A DNA stretch of 64,000 bases, from assembly GCA_027487835.1 (NCBI GenBank), contig JAIYCU010000028.1, positions 22,930-86,929 on the forward strand. The letters are read 5' to 3'. Of the stretch, positions 20,655 to 46,500 are shown one piece after another. The notes under the pieces were generated by a model. It saw only the letters and a list, made by a program, of their open reading frames with translations, ran no database searches and was not told the origin of the DNA. Numbering within the stretch: position 1 is the first letter of the stretch; every line of letters starts with the position of its first letter. Position numbers and translations under genes: made by a program. Source of the stretch: Bacteroidota bacterium (GTDB lineage: Bacteria > Bacteroidota > Bacteroidia > UKL13-3).

Positions 20655-20760
20655 TATTGTTTACCAAACAAACTTACCTAATCCTTTTCAATCAAAAAAT
20701 ACAACTTATTTAAAAGCCATGGCAGGTTATGTTAAATTAAAAATTAAGGTATGTTTGGCG
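20655..20760 (-). promoter_or_regulatory. conserved promoter-bearing intergenic element, copy A (core reads GGTATTTTTTGATTGAAAAGGATTAGGTAAGTTTG on the minus strand)
   Basis: Shares the acccaatccttttcaatcaaaaaatac core and the gccatggcaggtt block with copies at 26.4, 28.4, 31.9, 41.3 and 46.45 kb. Contains a Bacteroidetes -7 TAnnTTTG box, 60-140 nt upstream of a minus-strand start. Confidence 0.6.
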
Positions 20761-28367: not shown

Positions 28368-28490
28368 ACCTGCAACTTCATTTCGATAATTAAACCAACA
28401 TACCCAATGCTTTCCAACCAAAAAATACCTTGAAGAAATATGACATTATTAAAAGCCATTGCAAGTTCTGTTACATTAAAACTTACTTAA
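28368..28490 (-). promoter_or_regulatory. conserved promoter-bearing intergenic element, copy C
   Basis: cctgcaacttcatttcgataattaaac...acatacccaatgc...caaaaaatacc...gccattgcaagttctgtt. Upstream of the 26557..28239(-) start. Confidence 0.6.
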
Positions 28491-31844: not shown

Positions 31845-31930
31845 TTTAATCCCAGCAACTTCCTCTTTTATCTACAAACAAACATACCCAATCCTTTTCA
31901 TTCAAAAAATACCTGTAAGTGGATATGGTT
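31845..31930 (-). promoter_or_regulatory. conserved promoter-bearing intergenic element, copy D
   Basis: cccagcaacttcctctttt...caaacatacccaatccttttcattcaaaaaatacc, 50-130 nt upstream of the hydrolase start. Confidence 0.6.
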
Positions 31931-35541: not shown

Positions 35542-36726
35542 TTAAAATCTTGAAAACAGGGCTCTTAGAAAACATATAAAAGTATTATTAGTTAGTGATA
35601 AAATAAAAAGTCCAATAGCAAACACTGGAGTCAACCAAACTAAGAAACGAATAATGTTTAAATAGCTTTTTTGCTTACTGTGTAGATTATTAATTTTGGT
35701 AAATGTTGTTGTGAAATCATCACCAAGAATTCCAATTTTCTTATCATCAACAGAGTTTTCAAATCTATCAATATCATCTTTCACAAAGTCTATTGCAGAA
35801 AATTGATTACGCAGAAGAACTTCAAGTAAAACACTAAAAACAAATGCACTTAAAACCAAGGCGAAATTGAAATAGATTTTTTCGCCAGTAAGGTCAAATT
35901 GTCCAATTATTAATAAAAAAGCTGCTGGTATTGCCACAAGTTTTGTTTGTGCATCATTAATTACTGCTTGGATTTTTTTGCTGTATTCAATTATCTCCTT
36001 GTCAATTTCTGATTTAAATTTTTGATAAGAATACTTTTCTAAATATAAACTGTGGCTTTTATGGTAATTTAATGTAAGGTCTGAGAAGTTGGTAACCAAA
36101 AAATTGAATCTGTTTTTAGGTTCAATTATTTTTGATAGTGAAGCTATCAATTCATTTGTAAAAATAATTCGTCTCTCCTCCCTATCTGCTGAATCTTGAA
36201 TATGGCTAATTAAACTGTCTAGTTCTTTTATTTCAATTAAATCTTTGGCTGAATAATCCGTAGTTAGTATTAATTGCTTTGCTTGAAAAAAAACAATTTC
36301 ATTGCCCTTTTGATAATCTGAAATACTTCTTAAAAAAGAAATAAGTTTTGTAAATGCTGTATAATTTTGGATTTGAACTGGTTGAACTTGTTGGGTTGAA
36401 ACGTAATTCAGTGAGTTTACAAAGTATTTATTTTGAATATTAGATTGAGATGAGAAATTTATTAAATCTTCGAATGATTCAAAATACTTTTCATCTCCAA
36501 GTTGGTTGGAATATAGTCTTACTTTAATTCTATCGTTAATTGCAATTTGGTCAACTAGTTTATTTCGATTTAGAACAATTACAAAATTCTCAATGCAATT
36601 TGCGGCTGACAAACTTTTTAGTTTTTCTATTTCATCAAGATTAGGCACAAAAAAGCCGACTATTTCATTTCCTGAAATAGTAACTTCTTCAAGTCTTTGT
36701 CTTATCTGAATAAAATCGTTAAGCAT
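35542..36726 (-). CDS. hypothetical protein with C-terminal 3-TM region (candidate membrane effector; partner of the NdpA-like gene)
   Basis: 394 aa. The soluble N-terminal ~270 aa is charged and helical. TM helices are LVAIPAAFLLIIGQF, FALVLSAFVFSVLLEVLL and FLVWLTPVFAIGLFILSL. A 3-nt gap separates it from the upstream gene. Confidence 0.6.
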   Translation of the reverse strand: MLNDFIQIRQRLEEVTISGNEIVGFFVPNLDEIEKLKSLSAANCIENFVIVLNRNKLVDQIAINDRIKVRLYSNQLGDEKYFESFEDLINFSSQSNIQNKYFVNSLNYVSTQQVQPVQIQNYTAFTKLISFLRSISDYQKGNEIVFFQAKQLILTTDYSAKDLIEIKELDSLISHIQDSADREERRIIFTNELIASLSKIIEPKNRFNFLVTNFSDLTLNYHKSHSLYLEKYSYQKFKSEIDKEIIEYSKKIQAVINDAQTKLVAIPAAFLLIIGQFDLTGEKIYFNFALVLSAFVFSVLLEVLLRNQFSAIDFVKDDIDRFENSVDDKKIGILGDDFTTTFTKINNLHSKQKSYLNIIRFLVWLTPVFAIGLFILSLTNNTFICFLRALFSRF

Positions 36727-36729
36727 TGA

Positions 36730-37524
36730 TTATTCGGGGTCTTCTTCATTCGCAAATTGTCTTCTTAAATCATCAGGCAAATTAGTTATTCGTAATTCAT
36801 TTGTCTGTTGGTTGTAAAAAATACTTTCATTTACTAAGCCACTATCAAATTCAATTGTTAGTTTTTTGCTTCGATAAACGTAAAATTTCAAAGTCTTTAG
36901 TGTTTTATTGTGGCCTTTAATAAGAGAGCTTACTCTATAATCTTCACTCGCTGCAAATTCTTGAAACATGTCAGGCTCATCAGCACTTATCATTGATGAT
37001 ATGTGATGCAATGAAATATCCTCTTTTCTTCTAGTTTGAGCATAGCAATAATTCAGAACTTGATTTCTTAAATTTTCTTCTTCTTGAGTATCTAATTCTA
37101 GTTGTGGCAAATAATCGAGAAAAGCTCTTTTTAAGGATTCTGATGATTCTTTTGCAGATGTTTGGTCTGTACATCCAATAAATCTTTTAAAATAATTAGA
37201 AACATCTTTTCTTCCTCTTGCGAATGACAAATACGTTTCTTCATTATTGTCCCAACGAGTAACATTAACTGAATTGGCAACATCTAATTTGTCAATATCA
37301 AGACTGAATATTTCTTCAATACTCAAATTGTCATTTATATTGTATTGCTTTTTGTTGTTCAGCATTACAGTCATTACAAATTCTTCATTTTGTAGTGTAT
37401 AATGAGCAAAAACTACATAACCTCCTGTGGCTTGCGGAACTGCATTAATTACACCCAATAAATGATTCATTGCAGAAGCTGTGAAATCTAAAAACTGCTG
37501 TTCAACAAAGTAGTTTCTTAACAT
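36730..37524 (-). CDS. nucleoid-associated protein NdpA/YejK (NA37) family homolog
   Basis: [34 protein letters not shown] aligns with NdpA [34 protein letters not shown] aligns with YLTFLKGR. C-terminal [13 protein letters not shown] aligns with TIKGTPPNLRDQL. Confidence 0.6.
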   Translation of the reverse strand: [264 protein letters not shown]

Positions 37525-37736
37525 TGTTTGAAAAGGAAAAGTTACTGCATTCGGGTCAAAGATTCCATAGTTTGGATTTGACTTTTTGTAATAAACTTGC
37601 TTTATGTTTGTTACAAATTCTGTTTCTCTTTCACCGACTGGAAGTAGGTTTTCACGTAATGTTATTGTTGCATTACCTTGTGATTCTTTGTCCAGCCTGT
37701 GAACTATTATTGAGTGTAATTCTATATTATAAATTT

Positions 37737-38081
37737 TTACAATTCCCCTTTAAAAGCCTTGTCCAATAAACTTGGAATTAGTTTGGTTAATTCCTGTTCG
37801 GTTTGTTTGTGATGTTCTTTAACTGCATTTGTTTTATTGAGTAGTTCAACAAATTCTCTTTGCAATTCAATTGAAGGAACTGGAACTAATATTTTCATCA
37901 ACTTGTCTAAGCCCAATGTTTTGTTTCTTCCTATCACAATAATTTTTCCGTCAGTGAAAGTCCGCTGTTCAAGTATTAAATCGTCTGACCATTGGCTATC
38001 ATACAGCTTGGGCAACACTTCCTTTCGGCAAGTGTCCGCTTCGCTATCGTGATTGTCAATATGTATAGTTTTATCACTCAT
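37737..38081 (-). pseudogene. chimeric relic ORF: HsdR N-terminal domain fused to HsdS C-terminal conserved tail (type I R-M remnant)
   Basis: N-terminal SEADTCRKEVLPKLYDSQWSDDLILEQRTFTDGKIIVIGR matches HsdR_N (SEAxTRxxLIDPxLxxxGW...). C-terminal PVPSIELQREFVELLNKT...LIPSLLDKAFKGEL is the canonical HsdS C-terminus. Confidence 0.55.
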
Positions 38082-38145: not shown

Positions 38146-41100
38146 TTAAGTTGGTTGTTCATCCTCTATATTAATTTTTAGTACTATTGCAAATTGAGCA
38201 AAACTTGATGATAGGTTAGTTTTAGTTATGTTCCTATTTTTGTGATTTCTGAATTCATCTTCAACTTCTGCTGGTTCAAAATGTTCACCTAAGATAGTGG
38301 CTAAATAAATTGAAGTTAATTTGTCAAAATCATTAGTTGGCTTTTGGAAATTCAAATTAATTGTAGTTTTTAGTTTGTGAATTTTTGAGATTTCACTCTT
38401 TGGTATAGATGGAATCAAAATCTTACTCAAAGCCCATGAAGTAACTCGTTGCAAATTATAATCACCCGATTTAATCCATAATTTTGTCAAGTATATAACA
38501 TATTGTATCCTTAAACTATCTGGGAAAATATTTACTTCTCCTGACCAAGCAACACTCCAGCATATTGAGAAATGACAATGGGCATCATTTGTTTTGAGTA
38601 AGTCATACATAATTTTGAATATTTCCTCTGAAACTGAAATTTCTGAAATTCCTATTTCAAGTGGTCGAAATGATAAACCATACGCAAAGTTCATCATGCC
38701 TAATGCTGCTATACATTTATTTTCATTCGTTTCGCTTTTTAATGATAAAAGAATTTCATTTGGAATTGAAGATATATTTTCTGAATTCGCCAAGTCAGTA
38801 TAGAAAATGTCTGCTAAAGTTGACCCTAATGGGGACGAATATTTATCATCATATTTTCCAAAAAAACATTCTTTAACTCTTTTTCTAAATGCATTTCCAA
38901 ATTTATTTTTAAGAATAATATCTGTGTTTCCTCTTCCAAGGATTGTATAGATGTTTTTCGCATACCATTCAATTGCAGTGCCTAATAAGTCTGGACTAAT
39001 TTGAATTTCATTTGCAAGGCAGCTACCTAAAAGGGAGGGCGCAAGTTTATCTTCCTTTAGTTGTTCCTTTTTTTCTTTAGTGGCAATAATTTTTGATTCA
39101 GAAATTAAATATTCAATTAAGTCTTTTGTATCCCTTTCTAAAAGAACAGCAGCCAATGGTATTACCTCTTTCCAATTTTCATTATTTACATTTGGCTTAA
39201 TAATATCCACAACTTTACTTTCAATATCTGATAATGGAATAAACTTTTTTACTATCGCTTTCGCTGTCAAATACTCTTGGAAACTTAAATGCAAAAATTC
39301 ATATACCGCAGTTATGTTACCTGAATCAAGTTGTTTATGACCTGTCATTATTAGTAAGCTGCTTCTTGATTCAACCCTTTTTATAAATTCAGTGGGATTA
39401 ACATTTGTATAGCCTAAAATTTCTGGCATTTGTTTACGTGCATCAATGAGACAACCATTAAGTTCTTCTGAAGTAATCGTTTGTTGACCATTTTTAGTCA
39501 TCCAATATGCTACAAAAGCAAGTTGGGGTTCTGCTTCTTCAATGTCAAGAATTTCATGTCCTTCAACATTCCATGTCACTAAGAGAAGCTTAATCATTTC
39601 TTGATATAAAACACTTCTTTTAGTTGGAAGATACCCTGCCCATCTTTTAACAAAAAGTAGAGTAGTTAAGAGAAGTGGATTCTCGGCTAATACTACTATT
39701 CTATTGTCCTTTATAATTAAATCACTTAGCTTATTTGCTTCTTTAATTGTGTTTTCTGAGTCGTCTATAATTGCTTTGTGCCATTTTAAACACAGCTCTT
39801 CAATTTCCTCACCAATCAAATTTGAAACTGTATAGTTCTCACAATAAGTTGCTAATGAACCAGCTACAACTCTAAATCCCGCCTCTCGTGATGTTACTAT
39901 AATATTAATTGTAGGGTATGTTGCAATAAAGGTTCTCAGTTGGTTTACAAAGGCAATTCTATTCTTGTCTTCTGCAATTTCATCCAATCCGTCAATTAGT
40001 AACAACGCATTACCATTTTGCAATGACTTTGAAACTAAAATTGAAAAATCATCAGCGCAAGAATGAATTTCTGCTCTAGCAGGTATTCCGTTAATAATAT
40101 CAGTAATACTTAAAGTAACATTGTCCCCAAGTTCTCTACACCTTAAAAAAATTGGAAACCAATCTTTGTCAGGAAGTTTGTCATTTATTTGTATACGCCT
40201 TTCAGGGAAAGCATATGCAATTGCTATACGCTTAATAAGAGTTGATTTTCCGCCACCTGGCTTTGCAAGTATTGCAAGTTTTGATTTCTTTTCTAGGATT
40301 TCACCTATACCTTCTCTCGGTTTATCATCAAAATCAAATTCATCATTTATCCTTATTTGCAGTTTTTTACTCAAATGAAGAGGGACAAAAATATTTTCCA
40401 GCTTTACTTTAACCGAACCAGCTTCTTTATCAGTAGGTAATCCTTCAAATTGGATTTCACCTAATTCATTTTCTAAATACTTGAAATATTTTTCGCCTGT
40501 CTCTTTTAAGTTTCGTTTGGCTACTTTGGTTGTTTCCTCTTTGTTTAATAGGGTTAGTCCATCAAATAAATTTTTAATGTTATTGTCTATTAAAATTATC
40601 TCTTCTGCTAAATCTTTAATAAGAGGCTTTCCTTCCGCATGAACTAAAGCAACATGAGATGGTTTTTGTCCGTGCGAATCTGAATAATAAATTGCCCAAA
40701 CCCAACCTTTATCGTAAGCCAATAAATCGGCATAATCAAGCATATATAGCCCTGATATTAAATTAGATGAAGATGAAATTGCCTTCTCTATTGAGACTAA
40801 AACTCTTCCACGAATCAACTCCTCTACAATTTTTTCTGGCTTAATTAAAATTACTCTTTTATTGTCGGCTTCATTTTCTTGTTCAATTGCAGTTTCCTTA
40901 AAACCTGAAAGAGATATAAAATATCCTACAATGCTAATGCCTTTTGCCCCTTTTTCTTTTTTGCTTTTTCTTTTTTCGACATCAATAGCACCAACAAATT
41001 TGTTTATGTCCGCGCCACCTATTTTTTCTGAGTGAGCTTTACACTCAGCAATAGCTATTTTTTGTTCCGTTCTGTGATTTGAACTCAAATCTAATTCTCT

Positions 41101-41232
41101 GCCTGATTTGTGAATATTAAGCCTTGGTTCATCATATCCCAAAGTATGGAAAAGGTCAGACATCAATCGTCCAAAAAGATCACCTTTTTTGTTTGAATCA
41201 ATTTCTAAAATTTCAATGTTTCTAAGTTTCAT
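38146..41232 (-). CDS. NLR-like antiphage STAND protein: N-terminal Mrr-like PD-(D/E)xK nuclease, central NACHT NTPase, C-terminal helical-repeat sensor (bNACHT/Avs-like)
   Basis: N-terminal ELDL...AIAECK PD-(D/E)xK motif. Walker A AKPGGGKSTL. NACHT Walker B LLLIDGLDEI. NACHT-specific IIVTSRE. About 500-aa helical repeat C-terminus. Confidence 0.8.
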   Translation of the reverse strand: MKLRNIEILEIDSNKKGDLFGRLMSDLFHTLGYDEPRLNIHKSGRELDLSSNHRTEQKIAIAECKAHSEKIGGADINKFVGAIDVEKRKSKKEKGAKGISIVGYFISLSGFKETAIEQENEADNKRVILIKPEKIVEELIRGRVLVSIEKAISSSSNLISGLYMLDYADLLAYDKGWVWAIYYSDSHGQKPSHVALVHAEGKPLIKDLAEEIILIDNNIKNLFDGLTLLNKEETTKVAKRNLKETGEKYFKYLENELGEIQFEGLPTDKEAGSVKVKLENIFVPLHLSKKLQIRINDEFDFDDKPREGIGEILEKKSKLAILAKPGGGKSTLIKRIAIAYAFPERRIQINDKLPDKDWFPIFLRCRELGDNVTLSITDIINGIPARAEIHSCADDFSILVSKSLQNGNALLLIDGLDEIAEDKNRIAFVNQLRTFIATYPTINIIVTSREAGFRVVAGSLATYCENYTVSNLIGEEIEELCLKWHKAIIDDSENTIKEANKLSDLIIKDNRIVVLAENPLLLTTLLFVKRWAGYLPTKRSVLYQEMIKLLLVTWNVEGHEILDIEEAEPQLAFVAYWMTKNGQQTITSEELNGCLIDARKQMPEILGYTNVNPTEFIKRVESRSSLLIMTGHKQLDSGNITAVYEFLHLSFQEYLTAKAIVKKFIPLSDIESKVVDIIKPNVNNENWKEVIPLAAVLLERDTKDLIEYLISESKIIATKEKKEQLKEDKLAPSLLGSCLANEIQISPDLLGTAIEWYAKNIYTILGRGNTDIILKNKFGNAFRKRVKECFFGKYDDKYSSPLGSTLADIFYTDLANSENISSIPNEILLSLKSETNENKCIAALGMMNFAYGLSFRPLEIGISEISVSEEIFKIMYDLLKTNDAHCHFSICWSVAWSGEVNIFPDSLRIQYVIYLTKLWIKSGDYNLQRVTSWALSKILIPSIPKSEISKIHKLKTTINLNFQKPTNDFDKLTSIYLATILGEHFEPAEVEDEFRNHKNRNITKTNLSSSFAQFAIVLKINIEDEQPT

Positions 41233-41261: not shown

Positions 41262-41490
41262 AAGCTGTAATGCCGCAAATTTGTTTTCCATCAACTAATT
41301 TAATACATGCAACTCCAACTTATTTAACAAACTTACCCAATCCTTTACAAACAAAAAATACCCAAAAGTGGGTATATGAAAATATTCTAAATGAATAATG
41401 ACACATTGCACATAAAGTATTAATAACTTAAAACGAAAGATTCAATACACATTTCTACAAACCATTGCAGGTTCCGTTCAACTAGAATTT
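41262..41490 (-). promoter_or_regulatory. conserved promoter-bearing intergenic element, copy E, containing perfect palindrome ATACCCAAAAGTGGGTAT (41358..41375)
   Basis: gcaactccaacttatttaacaaacttacccaatcctttacaaacaaaaaatacccaaaagtgggtat...aaccattgcaggttccgtt, upstream of the NACHT gene start. Confidence 0.65.
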
Positions 41491-41586: not shown

Positions 41587-42063
41587 TTAAAGAGAAAACA
41601 CCAAAGGAATTACAATTGAAAAAATAAAAAGAATGTAATAAAATATATTTTCCCAAATTTTAAATAGAGAAATTAAAAAGTAGCTTATTTTATATTTACG
41701 TCTCATGTTTGGCTTAACTATTGTAATAAGGGGTCCATGTAAACTTAAAATATCTTTTTCATTAGATTTTATTAAATATTTCTCGAATAATTCGATTGTT
41801 TCTTGTAAATAAATATATCCAGTTAAAATTATTATGTGGAGAGTAAAAAATGTTATCACAATGCTTAATAGTAAAAGCTGAATTTGATTTAATTCAAAGC
41901 CTTTAGTTATTGAAAATCCAAAAGCCGAATTCCATAAAATTACAAACCAATACTTTAAATTTGTTAAATACTCGTATCTTTTTGTTCTAAGTTCAATAGT
42001 ATTGTTGAAATTTAAAAGCAGAAAGTCTCTTTTAAATTTTATATCTTCTGGCTTAAAGGACAT
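41587..42063 (-). CDS. small polytopic membrane protein (hypothetical)
   Basis: 158 aa with 3-4 predicted TM helices. Sits between the NACHT and RloC-like genes. Confidence 0.5.
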   Translation of the reverse strand: MSFKPEDIKFKRDFLLLNFNNTIELRTKRYEYLTNLKYWFVILWNSAFGFSITKGFELNQIQLLLLSIVITFFTLHIIILTGYIYLQETIELFEKYLIKSNEKDILSLHGPLITIVKPNMRRKYKISYFLISLFKIWENIFYYILFIFSIVIPLVFSL

Positions 42064-42440
42064 ACTTTGTTTTTTGCTTTAAAATTTGGGTATATAGAAT
42101 AACATTGTCATAATTTCAGAGTGTGAAAAACCTCATCAAACTTTTTAGTGTAAAAATATCAAAAAATGAATGATTAGGCAAGTATCTTGGTAGTTAAATT
42201 TGCATCAGCAAAACAATTATGGATAACATCAAAGTTAGTAATATCGATCAGATGGAGCTTTGTTGTAATTCTGGAGATACCTTTACACTTCTTCCATTTT
42301 TTTGTTTCTGGATAGACTCATATTTCACTCCAAAGCTTTTTACAAAGCCTATTAAAGTTTTGCCAGTTTGTTGGTTTTCTTAATGATTTTGAAATTTCCA
42401 TTATTAAATGCGAGGTGTCCCTAAAGGTTATAGCTTAACA

Positions 42441-42556
42441 ATTCGGAGGTTTGCGATGGCGGGGATTATTAGCACTAAACTTCATTCGGAGAACTGAATT
42501 TCCACCTTGCACAAAAGTGTCTGCGATGCACGGAACCCCGCCTATTGCAAATGTGC
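42441..42556. other. GC-rich structured element E2: 15-bp long-range stem (tttgcgatGGCGGGG ... CCCCGCCtattgcaa) enclosing about 70 nt, 3' of the RloC-like gene
   Basis: Local GC far above surroundings. Homologous (about 65-70% identity) to element E1 at 45075..45205. Stem base pairs covary with E1 (C:G vs T:A, G:C vs C:G). Shared inner motif GTGTCTGnGAnGCACnGAACC. Confidence 0.6.
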
Positions 42557-42604
42557 TGCTACAAGTTGGGCTTTTGTCTGTCTGAATATATGTTGTTTCA
42601 AATG

Positions 42605-44995
42605 TCATAATTGAACTTCAATTAAGTTAAGAGTGTCTTGTATTAGGTTGTCCAATTCAGGTTCAGTAATAGTATTAGGGTTAATACCTAACATTGTGTA
42701 ATCTGGAGTTGGGTCACCATGATGTGGTTTCCAGGAAACTCCATTAATTAAATGAAGTGTAGATATTATTGTTGTCCTGTTTGCATTGTCCCTAAATACA
42801 ACTGGCAATGTATCTAAAAATGTAATTAATCTTCCAAATGTTTGTATTCCTGTCATAGTTCGAACTTCCTTGTAGAATTTGAACCGTAAATGTGCTTCAA
42901 GAACATTTCTCAACCAACCTAAAACAGTGTCTTTAATTGCATGGTTTGGGTTACTTCTAAAAGCCTCCAATGCTTCAATATGTTTAAAGTATTCAATTTT
43001 TACCAATTCTTCTAAATCACATAGTTCAAGTTTAGATGCTTTGGCTACGAAATCTTCCTTTATACGAAGTGTGCATTTTAAGGTTGCTCCAATGTCTTTG
43101 CCTATTTCATGAAGAAAATATTCATTGTGGCTTAAAACAACCACCTGCTTTAGTTGTTGAAATAATGTTCTAATAATTCCAATTGTATAGGTTCTTCTAT
43201 TAGTATCTAAACTTGATAAAGGGTCATCAAAAATTAAAATTTTATCTTGGCGGTTTGGATCAATGTCAAGTTTGGATAAAAAGAACGCTAAAGCAATTGT
43301 GCTTTTATCTCCCTCGCTCAAACATTCCTTGGCATTAAATGGTTGATTTGGGACAAATGATATGTCCTTGCCGTCTATTGTCAATTTGTAAGCGATTTTG
43401 CTTTGTGTTGCTCTTCCTGCTGGAGCAACATGAACAACATCCTCTATTCTAAAAAGTGTCTTGAAAACATTGCCCAAATAATGGTTGATACGTGTCTGGT
43501 AGCTATTGAAAAAAGTTGCTGCTGTGGTTTGCTGTTGTTGCGATAAAGCTGTGTATGCTGTTTCTAAACCTCTAAGTGTTTGTTTCTCGGCAGACAATTG
43601 AGTGCAAAGCGTAACAATGGGAGTTTCATATCTCTTTTTAATTCTTTTTAGTCTATCAACCGCAAGCTGTGCATTTGCAGCAGTCTGAATACCTGCACGA
43701 AAAGTTGTAATTGCAGCATTGTAAGTTGTAATGCTTTGATTGTAGCTTTCAATGTTTGTGTTAATGGTCTGTCCAGAAGACAGAAAAACAGTAGCGGTGG
43801 CGGTAGCCACCGCTACTGTAGGATTTTGTATTTTTTGTTGGAGTGAATCAATTAACCTTTGAAACTCTGCTCTTAAAACAGTTTCGTCCGCAATGATGTT
43901 AAAAATTGGTGGATGAACTGTATTTGGCAAGTGCGTAGCCCATAACGTTACTCTCCCTGTATTTGTCTGATTGATATTGTTTATCGCTTGTATGGCAGCG
44001 TCCAAATTGAAGTTTTGAAGCGAAGTCAAATGTGATTGTAGTCGTAGAACTAAAGCGTTAAAGTCAGCATTAAATTTAGTGATATAGGCGTTTAGAATTT
44101 CAACATTGCCATCAATAGTCTGCATACAAAATGGACAAGAAATTGTGGGTTCATTTGCTGCTTGTTTTCTCTCCACATATGCAAATCCTCTTTGCAGCCA
44201 ATTTTCAGGTCCGTCAAGTCCGTTGTCTGTCAAGTCTTGACAATGATTTGAAAACAAAGTTTCCAAAGCTGCATTTTGAATTGCTTGTGATGTTGTCTGT
44301 AAGTCTGTGATAAGAGAAGTGAAATCAATACCCGATATTATTCGGGTGAGAGCAGTAAGTTGTTGTAATGTTTGAATTATTGTGTTTGCATTCGCACTCG
44401 CTAATGCAGCCTCCGCCGCTGTAATTTGTTGGTCAATTCCGCTAGATTGTGTTACAGGAATAGCAAGAAATGAAGTAATTAAGTCAGCGGTCAAACTGTT
44501 TCCCACTTGCTGAATTAATTGTTGTTCAATATTTGTTATTGATTGTTTTGATATGACTTTAGCAGCTTTGTTTTGTTCAATTTGATTTTGAATTGCAATT
44601 CCTTGTGCACCGATAACAAATTGATGAAGTTGCTTTTTATGTTCATCATTAAAGTCAAACCCTGAATAGATATTGTCGTTGACAAAATGAATGTCAAAAA
44701 TCTCAATATTATCAAAAGGAGTTGTCCAACCAGCAGCCCTTAAGGTGTGAAATGTATTCGGTGTCCCTGTTTGAGTTATTTGTGCTGCTTGTGCTGCTAT
44801 ATGGTTTGTAGAAATTCTACTTCTAACGATTTCAGGTTTGTTGGTTGTCAAGGAACGAAACACTGAAGTTAGTGTGGTTTTACCACCTCCATTGTTGCCA
44901 TAAATTAAGGTCAGCTTTTGAAAATTAATCTGTCCAGCAGCAGTGTAGTTGCGGAATTTTCCAATGGAAGTAAGTCGTTCAACTTTGTTTATCAT
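42605..44995 (-). CDS. RloC/PrrC-like anticodon-nuclease-type ABC ATPase (AAA_13-like): split ABC head with long coiled-coil insert, CxxC zinc-hook, C-terminal HEPN-like domain
   Basis: Walker A GNNGGGKTT at the N-terminus. About 450-aa Gln/Ala-rich coiled-coil with SCPFC. ABC signature LSEGDKSTIALAFFL, Walker B ILIFDDP, H-loop VLSHN. C-terminal roughly 190 aa carry an Rx5H match to the HEPN Rx4-6H motif (LRNVLEAH). Confidence 0.7.
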   Translation of the reverse strand: MINKVERLTSIGKFRNYTAAGQINFQKLTLIYGNNGGGKTTLTSVFRSLTTNKPEIVRSRISTNHIAAQAAQITQTGTPNTFHTLRAAGWTTPFDNIEIFDIHFVNDNIYSGFDFNDEHKKQLHQFVIGAQGIAIQNQIEQNKAAKVISKQSITNIEQQLIQQVGNSLTADLITSFLAIPVTQSSGIDQQITAAEAALASANANTIIQTLQQLTALTRIISGIDFTSLITDLQTTSQAIQNAALETLFSNHCQDLTDNGLDGPENWLQRGFAYVERKQAANEPTISCPFCMQTIDGNVEILNAYITKFNADFNALVLRLQSHLTSLQNFNLDAAIQAINNINQTNTGRVTLWATHLPNTVHPPIFNIIADETVLRAEFQRLIDSLQQKIQNPTVAVATATATVFLSSGQTINTNIESYNQSITTYNAAITTFRAGIQTAANAQLAVDRLKRIKKRYETPIVTLCTQLSAEKQTLRGLETAYTALSQQQQTTAATFFNSYQTRINHYLGNVFKTLFRIEDVVHVAPAGRATQSKIAYKLTIDGKDISFVPNQPFNAKECLSEGDKSTIALAFFLSKLDIDPNRQDKILIFDDPLSSLDTNRRTYTIGIIRTLFQQLKQVVVLSHNEYFLHEIGKDIGATLKCTLRIKEDFVAKASKLELCDLEELVKIEYFKHIEALEAFRSNPNHAIKDTVLGWLRNVLEAHLRFKFYKEVRTMTGIQTFGRLITFLDTLPVVFRDNANRTTIISTLHLINGVSWKPHHGDPTPDYTMLGINPNTITEPELDNLIQDTLNLIEVQL

Positions 44996-45211: not shown

Positions 45212-46393
45212 TCACTTTATAAATTCAGATTTTTCAAGATTTGGATAAGTCTCAATGAATTCCTCAAACGTGCCTTTAAAGGTTTCAAGTTGACCAATTT
45301 GCTTTTGGGAGAAAATTTGATTTACTTTTTCCCAATGAGCATCTGATGATGTTGGGTCTACTACTTTGATTATAGGTTTATTTCTATTCCAATTTAAAGC
45401 ATGTTGTAATAAATTTAAAAATGCTAGGTCTGATTGAGGAAATGAATATCCGATTATAATAATTTCTTGTGCTTCAATTAGTGATTTGAATGTTCCATCC
45501 CAAAGTTCTTTAGCTGTAGAATTTTCGTTCTTACCTAAAATTGGGGCAACTAAATCATGTTCAAGTTTTGCTCCACAAATGCCACATTTAAATCGGTCAA
45601 ATAAATTTCTTATTTCTTCTGTACTATGTTTGTCATCGTAATACATTGAGTAACTATTCACAATTTTGTAGTTATGGATAGTCTTACAGTTTGGACATTT
45701 AAACCAATCAAACGACCCATGTAATTTAATCAATTCATGGTGTTTACTGTAAGTCCATTTATATTGTTCATTACGGATTAAATGAGCTCCGTCACTAAAT
45801 GTATAGATTGGTACTATATAATGTGGCACAACATTAAAATTGCTTTCTACGCCAACTACACCCCAGATGTGGTCAAAATATTCGTCATCAAGTTTACAGT
45901 CATAGTTAAATGATATAGTACTTAATACCGGTATGTTATTGTCGTTAATTGTTTTGAACCATAGTCTATCAAAGAAATTTTTGTATAATTCTTTTGAGTT
46001 GTCTAAAAAAATTGTGTTATCAATGAATTTAGAAGTTTTGTTGTCAATGGCAGAAAAGATAATTTTTGTAAGCGTTTTAAATACTTTAGTTAAAGTGTCT
46101 TGGTTCAGAAGATAATTGTCAACATGAATTATAGAATTGTTTCGTATAAAATAATCAAGTTGTCCCAAGAGATTTTCATAATCAATCCACTCTTTTTCCA
46201 AGTCTTTTCCTTGCAATTCCAAAACAATTGATTTTACTATTGTAAATACTTCCTTAAAATGACTTGATTTACATTCCTTGATAAATTCAATTATAGATGT
46301 TGGAAGCTGATTAAGAGTTGGAATTCCATAAGCAAAAGAAGCTCCTGCCCCGAAGACACAAGCTGTTCTCTTTATATTTTTATGGTCTGTCAT
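45212..46393 (-). CDS. SIR2-like (SIR2_2/DSR-type) defense-associated protein with C-terminal Cys-rich zinc-ribbon
   Basis: N-terminal ACVFGAGASFAYGIP matches the SIR2_2 hallmark (hFhGAGhS..GhP). C-terminal CPNCK...CGICG. Defense-island context. Confidence 0.65.
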   Translation of the reverse strand: MTDHKNIKRTACVFGAGASFAYGIPTLNQLPTSIIEFIKECKSSHFKEVFTIVKSIVLELQGKDLEKEWIDYENLLGQLDYFIRNNSIIHVDNYLLNQDTLTKVFKTLTKIIFSAIDNKTSKFIDNTIFLDNSKELYKNFFDRLWFKTINDNNIPVLSTISFNYDCKLDDEYFDHIWGVVGVESNFNVVPHYIVPIYTFSDGAHLIRNEQYKWTYSKHHELIKLHGSFDWFKCPNCKTIHNYKIVNSYSMYYDDKHSTEEIRNLFDRFKCGICGAKLEHDLVAPILGKNENSTAKELWDGTFKSLIEAQEIIIIGYSFPQSDLAFLNLLQHALNWNRNKPIIKVVDPTSSDAHWEKVNQIFSQKQIGQLETFKGTFEEFIETYPNLEKSEFIK

Positions 46394-46417: not shown

Positions 46418-46500
46418 TAAACGCACTAATGCACCCAATATCAAACAAACATACCCAATCCTTTTTAATCAAAAAATACCCAAAAGTGGGTATATTTAAA
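46418..46500 (-). promoter_or_regulatory. conserved promoter-bearing intergenic element, copy F, containing palindrome ATACCCAAAAGTGGGTAT (46476..46493)
   Basis: caaacatacccaatcctttttaatcaaaaaatacccaaaagtgggtat is near-identical to copy E. On the coding strand it carries the TTTTTTG / TATGTTTG (-33/-7-like) boxes just upstream of the SIR2 gene. Confidence 0.65.

Follow-up and report, generated by a model that had tools for sequence, protein, structure and literature searches.

An intact Mrr_cat-NACHT gene of bNACHT clade 2 in a defense-like gene cluster of an uncultured Bacteroidota bacterium

The stretch of DNA analyzed here, 64,000 nucleotides of contig JAIYCU010000028.1 (assembly GCA_027487835.1, positions 22,930 to 86,929; referred to below as the window), comes from an uncultured Bacteroidota bacterium and carries on its minus strand a long gene for which an original prediction, made from the letters alone, had proposed a bacterial NLR-like antiphage sensor. 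The locus raises the question of what kind of protein this gene encodes, whether it acts with a partner, and how it relates to the adjoining repeat, element E. The gene is an intact, well-preserved gene for a bacterial NLR-like immune protein and an ordinary member of an already catalogued family, not new in kind, since a close homolog and the architecture itself are already in the published bNACHT catalogue. We consider it likely that its product is an antiphage protein of the STAND/NLR-like kind that works alone as a single polypeptide and belongs to the 'Mrr_cat+NACHT' type in bNACHT clade 2; the antiphage activity itself we infer by analogy.

The gene is a single intact open reading frame (ORF) with an ATG start and 1028 codons plus stop, and the 1028-residue protein originally predicted is borne out by the ORF list and its translation. 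By our own arithmetic, the chance of an ORF of this length is ~e^-80 at ~32% GC and a stop frequency of ~0.076 per codon, and the start Met is shared with full-length homologs of 1011-1073 amino acids at 51-85% identity. All residues called invariant below are so in an alignment of the window protein with 34 full-length homologs (35 sequences; 51-85% identity), and the same alignment served for an AlphaFold2 model (mean predicted local distance difference test score, pLDDT, 82.9; predicted template modeling score, pTM, 0.71) that falls into five parts, among them a nuclease core, a beta-rich domain, a NACHT module made up of nucleotide-binding domain (NBD), helical domain 1 (HD1) and winged-helix domain (WHD), and an all-helical region at residues 667-1017. 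A PDB sequence search with the full protein returned nothing useful. The features of the gene are as follows:

38146..41232, minus strand: complete coding sequence, 1028 amino acids plus stop, encoding Mrr_cat nuclease, beta-rich linker domain, NACHT module and armadillo-like sensor (ORF list and translation)
40810..41232, minus strand: N-terminal PD-(D/E)xK / Mrr_cat nuclease, residues 1-141 (Pfam, invariant residues, model)
41089-41091 (D48), 41044-41046 (E63) and 41038-41040 (K65), minus strand: putative catalytic residues (invariant in 35 sequences)
40543..40791, minus strand: beta-rich domain between nuclease and NACHT module, residues 148-230 (AlphaFold model)
39247..40527, minus strand: NACHT module, residues 236-662, with pre-NBD strands, NBD, HD1 and winged helix (Pfam, motifs, Foldseek)
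40240-40260, minus strand: Walker A, P325-T331 (invariant motif)
39979-40005, minus strand: Walker B, L410-E418 (invariant motif)
39886-39894, minus strand: T447-S-R449 (invariant motif)
39289-39291, minus strand: His648 of the winged helix (invariant residue)
38182..39234, minus strand: C-terminal armadillo/HEAT-like alpha-solenoid, presumed sensor, residues 667-1017 (two models, Foldseek, profile)

The identity of the central NTPase is the point on which the classification turns. Pfam NACHT (PF05729) matches residues 322-487 with 39.4 bits against a gathering cut-off of 26.7 (E 7e-10), spanning profile positions 6-166 of 167, and the same family is precomputed for nearly all of the 120 listed homologs. 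The motifs quoted in the original prediction are all located as stated (E46-L-D48-L, A62-E63-C-K65, G326GGKST331, L410LLIDGLDEI419 and I444IVTSRE450), and their key positions do not vary: G326, G328, K329, S330 and T331 of the Walker A (P325-GGGKST-331), D414, D417 and E418 of the NACHT-type Walker B (L410-LLIDGLDE-418), and T447, S448 and R449 of the sensor-1-type TSR motif are invariant. In the model the NBD spans residues 309-470, the helical domain 474-552 and the winged helix 564-662. H648, Q652 and E653, invariant within Y644-EFLHLSFQEY, lie on the helix that follows a beta-hairpin at 627-646, and by motif and topology His648 appears to be the counterpart of NLRC4 H443, the winged-helix histidine that is among the defining residues of the NACHT module according to Kibby et al. 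(bioRxiv 10.1101/2022.07.19.500537). A Foldseek search against the PDB gave NLRC4, NLRP3, NLRP2/7, NAIP5 or related NLR chains at each of ranks 1-32 (E 5e-11 to 3e-6), with best matches to NLRC4 at 5e-11 and NLRP3 at 1e-10; ORC/Cdc6 proteins come below the NLRs, from E 2e-4 only, and HEAT/armadillo proteins likewise follow them. The NTPase is thus a STAND NTPase of the NACHT clade (PF05729; Koonin & Aravind 2000) and not of another STAND or AAA+ clade, as the proposed NACHT motifs had indicated.

At the N-terminus, Pfam Mrr_cat (PF04471) matches residues 19-137 with 27.3 bits against a cut-off of 21 (E 4e-6), and E46, D48, E63 and K65, the PD-(D/E)xK catalytic set, are invariant in 35/35 sequences. 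The modeled secondary structure of residues 1-141 (helices 13-30, 73-92 and 113-121; strands 47-53, 58-65, 100-107 and 128-130) has an order that fits the alpha-beta-beta-beta-alpha-beta core of such nucleases. Profile, D...ExK triad and modeled core together indicate an Mrr_cat / PD-(D/E)xK nuclease with putative Mg2+-dependent DNA cleavage, in keeping with the Mrr-like nuclease originally proposed. An NTPase outside the NACHT clade or an N-terminus without a nuclease fold had been named as grounds for abandoning that proposal; both were checked, and the NTPase falls inside the clade while the nuclease fold is predicted. A profile of the N-terminal 235 residues searched against the PDB found no sequence relative with a solved structure. 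Between nuclease and NACHT module, the beta-rich domain at residues 148-230 is modeled with strands at 163-173, 176-184 and 193-198 and a helix at 206-219 (pLDDT ~87-92); it holds six invariant residues (D169, G176, W177, Y182, H198 and G201) and has no match in Pfam or in PDB sequence searches.

The Mrr catalytic type of this nuclease, weak PADLOC matches to a type IV methyl-directed restriction enzyme model (E 0.009) and the remnant of a type I restriction-modification (R-M) operon that adjoins the gene could also be taken to mean that the protein is a type IV, Mrr-like modification-dependent restriction enzyme, with the NTPase as a motor or regulator on DNA and modified DNA as the signal. 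This is most improbable, because the NTPase, with its winged helix and NLR-like fold, is a STAND/NACHT switch and not one of the GTPase or helicase motors of McrB, Res or SNF2 type, and because neither Pfam nor the N-terminal profile search against the PDB detected a DNA-binding or modified-base-reading domain. The PADLOC matches, moreover, lie far above a credible threshold and cover the nuclease fold only.

The NACHT protein can be assigned to bNACHT clade 2 through a close proxy rather than through a rebuilt tree. PKN68616.1, from Deltaproteobacteria bacterium HGW-Deltaproteobacteria-12 (our hit P0016), shows 76% full-length identity to the window protein, and Table S1 of Kibby et al. enters it under clade 2 as 'Mrr_cat+NACHT' (Mrr_cat 17-130, NACHT 214-712), which places the window protein in the same clade. 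Four tested genes, bNACHT20, 27, 30 and 37, belong to this clade (Kibby et al.). The original prediction had spoken of a 'NACHT/Avs-type' STAND protein; the bNACHT half of that label holds through the clade 2 homolog, and the Avs half is dropped because PADLOC matched no defense NTPase model.

Residues 667-1017 are all-helical in both AlphaFold models, and a stand-alone model of residues 664-1028 reaches a pLDDT of 88.1 and a pTM of 0.88. The Foldseek neighbors of this stand-alone model are designed armadillo proteins and importin-alpha (1.5e-4 to 1e-2), a sequence profile of the solenoid gives weak importin-alpha matches in the PDB (E 0.02) over a segment with four invariant tryptophans, and one relative scores the Pfam Arm repeat in its C-terminus. 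On these grounds the predicted long helical-repeat C-terminus is real, and its repeats are of the armadillo/HEAT-like kind. It is also where the protein changes most: mean identity to the homologs is 77-81% in NBD, HD1 and WHD, 73% in the nuclease, 56% in the middle domain and 62% in the proximal part of the solenoid (667-760), and it falls to 37%, with a minimum of 21%, in the distal part (761-1017), the fastest-evolving region of the protein. The same contrast between core and C-terminus was read as an arms-race signature for the C-terminal domain of clade 14 (Kibby et al.). The four tryptophans (W892, W896, W919 and W933) sit on three successive solenoid helices, and these residues together with the weak importin-alpha profile matches suggest that the solenoid might recognize an extended peptide, a linear motif or a cue outside the folds known to trigger Avs families. 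If true, such peptide-type sensing would be a new recognition mode or trigger class in bacterial NLR-like immunity.

What the solenoid senses bears on a second alternative, guard-type sensing, in which it would monitor a host protein or chaperone changed by infection. The precedent is bNACHT25, likewise a nuclease-NACHT protein: in bNACHT25/32 the nuclease is needed for defense (D48A), mutants of the winged-helix histidine are hyperactive and sensing is mediated by DnaJ (PMC12169576). Within clade 2, the bNACHT20 sensor cluster is active against phage with no activator identified, phage-encoded ones included (Lee et al., Nature 2026, PMC13581612), and the proximal solenoid, at 62% identity and with invariant W687, E689, R700, N741 and Q744, could fit a conserved host partner. 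Guard-type sensing is nonetheless rather unlikely, given the rapid divergence of the distal sensor, the spread of the family over phyla with very different host proteomes and the direct binding of phage proteins by most characterized Avs families (PMC13581612).

This spread is wide. A word-indexed search returned 985 relatives, of which the best 120 are mostly 1000-1050 amino acids long and 51-85% identical, and an exhaustive search of 50%-identity cluster representatives returned 14,047 proteins at E≤1e-3 and 594 at E≤1e-30; the relatives are named 'NACHT domain-containing protein' or 'restriction endonuclease' in their sources, RefSeq included. Among GTDB species genomes, close relatives occur in Bacteroidota, Campylobacterota, Desulfobacterota, Bdellovibrionota and many Clostridia, a patchy distribution typical of horizontally moving genes. 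Two homologs lie on contigs assigned to metagenome-assembled genomes (MAGs) of more distant groups, a 72% homolog in a Nanoarchaeota MAG (locus L007, JAGLMD010000031.1) and a 61% homolog in a Cyanobium MAG (locus L033, CALRLS020000202.1), and may reflect gene transfer between domains or phyla, or else faulty binning. The family is also modular: in some relatives the match starts only at about residue 300, and in others it stops at about residue 755. By Pfam, certain variants gain a TIR domain or a calcineurin-like phosphoesterase at the N-terminus, and another ends in a LON substrate-binding domain where the solenoid would be. Such a pattern, in which the switch is conserved, the ends are exchangeable and the C-terminus evolves fast, has been described for immune STANDs.

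For the preferred reading, a stand-alone NLR-like antiphage protein, the following mechanism may be proposed. At rest, the NACHT module would hold ADP contacted by His648 and keep the protein a closed, autoinhibited monomer, as its motifs and NLR-like fold suggest. The fast-diverging solenoid would then bind an infection cue, most likely a phage protein and possibly a perturbed host factor, and binding would permit exchange of ADP for ATP and oligomerization through NBD, HD1 and WHD, by analogy with Avs3/4, Avs8, bNACHT11 and the animal NLRs. The oligomer would juxtapose the Mrr-type PD-(D/E)xK domains for Mg2+-dependent cleavage of double-stranded DNA, on the model of bNACHT25 and Avs8A, so that phage DNA, host DNA or both could be destroyed and the infection aborted.

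A partner gene was looked for as well, and none was found. When the ORFs within +/-8 kb of the 34 homologs and in the window were clustered by BLASTP, no neighbor family was common to more than 5 of the 36 loci, and with no neighbor conserved across homologous loci the NACHT gene is stand-alone, without a dedicated partner. Annotation of the 121 nearest neighbors at 32 homologous loci (up to two per side) gave a mixed picture, with a few defense-like genes (PtuA/AriA-type ATPases, PDC-M62A/B, ResIII) and a few mobile-element genes (IS200 transposase, resolvase). In the window itself, the gene sits among defense-like genes on the minus strand, listed here with the 158-residue ORF that lies between them:

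45212-46393, minus strand: SIR2-like gene, 393 amino acids, upstream of the NACHT gene (weak SIR2 and PADLOC SIR2 matches)
42605-44995, minus strand: AAA_13 ATPase, 796 amino acids (PADLOC candidate PDC-S06, 5e-70; weaker matches to LmuB, mad3 and PrrC)
41587-42063, minus strand: 158-residue ORF with several hydrophobic helices, membrane-like, upstream of the NACHT gene
37737-38081, minus strand: 114-residue HsdR/HsdS chimera, directly downstream of the NACHT gene
36730-37725, minus strand: relative of DS1_1_antiphage ('nucleoid-associated anti-phage protein', NA37 fold; NCBIfam 2e-29, below the curated cut-off; Pfam NA37 1.5e-52)
35542-36726, minus strand: relative of DS1_2_antiphage (NCBIfam 6e-19, below the curated cut-off)

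The SIR2-like gene and the AAA_13 ATPase possibly form a two-gene defense system. A 57-residue ORF at 42435-42608 overlaps the stop codon of the ATPase gene (ATGA). The coding region of the ATPase also contains, at 43788-43819, a perfect 14-bp palindrome rich in GC (ACAGTAGCGGTGGC/GCCACCGCTACTGT), which a terminator-like scan flags on both strands. The 540 nucleotides at 42064-42604 contain no long ORF and only short fragments, such as 'MEISKSLRKPTNWQNFNRLCKKLWSEI' at 42318-42401, and probably represent what is left of one or more decayed genes; they separate the AAA_13 gene from the 158-residue ORF. The latter has no match in Pfam, PADLOC or NCBIfam and was considered as a partner gene for the NACHT protein; it is not conserved beside NACHT homologs elsewhere, and because the clustering found no partner it is placed outside any system with the NACHT gene. 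A terminator-like hairpin and a promoter-like block stand between the two.

On the downstream side, residues 13-58 of the 114-residue chimera resemble the N-terminus of EcoAI-type HsdR (NCBIfam NF046051) and residues 50-114 the C-terminus of type I HsdS (PADLOC Specificity_I, 4.5e-11), so that by sequence the ORF looks like what a deletion has left of a type I R-M operon. The frame of the NA37-type gene is open up to 37740, with no ATG, GTG or TTG before 37524, and an ATA codon (37723-37725) opens its conserved N-terminus 'IELHSIIVHRLDKE'; either the start codon has mutated or the gene uses a non-canonical one. A search around the cluster for the hallmarks of mobile elements turned up no tRNA, integrase or transposase. 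The window also encodes type IX secretion system (T9SS) sorting domains, and for another of its genes the closest homologs with a named source are from Bacteroidota and Bacteroidia MAGs.

The remaining component of the locus is element E, which the original prediction had credited with an operator-like palindrome and had placed downstream of the gene. Gene and element do adjoin; their order is the reverse, since the gene is on the minus strand and the element, which follows it only in plus-strand coordinates, lies 5' of it, 89-150 nucleotides upstream of the start codon. The element and the block that it contains are located as follows:

41321..41382, minus strand: element E, a 7-bp hairpin ATACCCAC-TTTT-GGGTAT, a T-run, then the block AAAGGATTGGGTAAGTTTGTT containing TAnnTTTG (repeat and terminator-like scan)
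20667-20687, 28393-28413, 31877-31897, 41326-41346 and 46444-46464, minus strand: copies of the promoter-like block, ~40 nucleotides (GTATTTTTTG..AAAGGATTGGGTAnGTTTGTTTG)

A second copy of element E, an 87% identical direct repeat, lies at 46439-46500, just 5' of the SIR2-like gene, and the terminator-like scan flags both copies. The block after the hairpin reads AAAGGATTGGGTA[A/T]GTTTGTT on the minus strand and contains TAnnTTTG, which we take to be the -7 motif of Bacteroidetes promoters. Its 21-nucleotide form has five copies in the window, where chance would give 0.01; every copy is on the minus strand, 51-154 nucleotides upstream of a minus-strand start codon, and all five fall within a lower-GC stretch at 20-47 kb. 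The genes behind it encode a DUF6252 protein, a 560-residue protein, an alpha/beta hydrolase, the NACHT protein and the SIR2-like protein. An operator can be set aside: the palindrome forms a 7-bp hairpin with a T-run behind it, its folding energy is unremarkable (z -1.0 and -1.6), and the block recurs before unrelated genes. A tie to the NACHT family was likewise ruled out, since element E occurs nowhere in the stretches fetched for 35 NACHT-homolog loci of other genomes, and as a candidate for a widespread mobile or intergenic element it gave no exact copy in two scans of JGI metagenome contigs. With a terminator-like hairpin and a block recurring before five window genes, element E is best described, from its sequence, as a host-specific terminator/promoter module 5' of the gene and not a gene-specific operator.

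The block could be a strong consensus promoter or the mark of a shared regulon; one possibility is that the NACHT gene, the SIR2-like gene and the three non-defense genes form a co-regulated set under one regulator or sigma factor. That the block marks a co-regulated set or, independently, that the armadillo solenoid reads an extended peptide or a new class of cue seems to us doubtful. The two copies of element E, direct repeats 5118 nucleotides apart, bracket the SIR2 gene, the AAA_13 gene, the ORF fragments and the 158-residue ORF, which hints that the bracketed block got there by insertion or exchange between two copies of one intergenic module; no recombinase gene was found nearby.

The decay within this cluster, seen in the hsdR/hsdS chimera, the ORF fragments at 42064-42604 and the NA37-type gene without a canonical start, together with the interspersion of defense and non-defense STAND clades (Lee et al.), leads to the last alternative, that the protein has no defense role and is either a STAND protein for other signaling or an inactive relic. 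This is very unlikely given that the ORF is intact and of full length with all catalytic and nucleotide-binding residues kept, that the predicted effector is a nuclease rather than a DNA-binding or signaling output, and that the gene has its own promoter-like block.

Several points weigh against an antiphage protein of the kind proposed. The scan of the protein with PADLOC-DB 2.0 matched no defense NTPase model, the two matches at E≤1 being weak and both in the nuclease region. The database includes AVAST and PD-lambda-4 models. In an NCBIfam scan the sole match was EruA, whose 25.5 bits fall far below the cut-off of 1000, and the plasmid and phage collections searched held no full-length relative. 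The neighbors in other genomes are mostly not defense genes, many of them being ordinary. Of the tested genes of clade 2, bNACHT27, 30 and 37 have an empty 'Phage Defense' cell in Table S2 of Kibby et al.

For a specialist, these findings hold no surprise: they add one more intact example of a catalogued bacterial NLR subfamily, with Mrr nuclease, NACHT module and armadillo-like sensor, inside a small defense-like cluster. The practical value is modest, as the family is large, extends across many phyla and swaps effectors and sensors among its members. The subfamily would be a reasonable choice for a trigger screen because no Avs or bNACHT protein with a known trigger appears to share its sensor.

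Among known systems, the best functional analogue is Avs8A (PD-lambda-4), which also combines an Mrr-family nuclease, a STAND NTPase and a C-terminal sensor, and in which a capsid protein triggers ATP- and Mg2+-dependent DNA cleavage (PMC12236752). Avs8A is, however, encoded with a second gene, Avs8B, and senses HK97-fold capsid proteins, whereas the window gene has no conserved partner; Avs8 is equated with PD-lambda-4 and not with a bNACHT by Lee et al. (PMC13581612) and carries no NACHT label in PMC12236752. The animal NLRs (NLRC4, NLRP3 and NAIP5) are the top structural neighbors of the NACHT module and follow the same tripartite logic, but at 12-15% sequence identity and with leucine-rich repeat (LRR) sensors and CARD/PYD adaptor effectors in place of an enzymatic nuclease. 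A similar layout is seen in bNACHT25 and bNACHT32 of E. coli, with an N-terminal PD-(D/E)xK DNase, a central NACHT and a C-terminal helical domain, although these belong to clade 6, are 752 amino acids long and bear an NCH1 domain instead of an armadillo-like solenoid. Close homology to bNACHT25, suggested by the common 'D48', was rejected: BLASTP aligns the two from P-loop to Walker B only (27% over 101 residues), their nucleases do not align, and the matching number is coincidental. Within clade 2, bNACHT37 aligns from the pre-NBD strands to the P-loop (28% over 94 residues, E 5e-8), and the calcineurin-like domain of bNACHT20 recurs in one relative of the window protein; the effectors differ, being calcineurin-like/SidE in bNACHT20 and SIR2 plus HEPN in bNACHT37, and so do the sensors. 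The clade 2 'Mrr_cat+NACHT' proteins represented by PKN68616.1 match the window protein in length and in their Mrr_cat, NACHT and C-terminal regions and differ from it in nothing of kind, so that the window gene is a further ortholog of this group, from an uncultured Bacteroidota.

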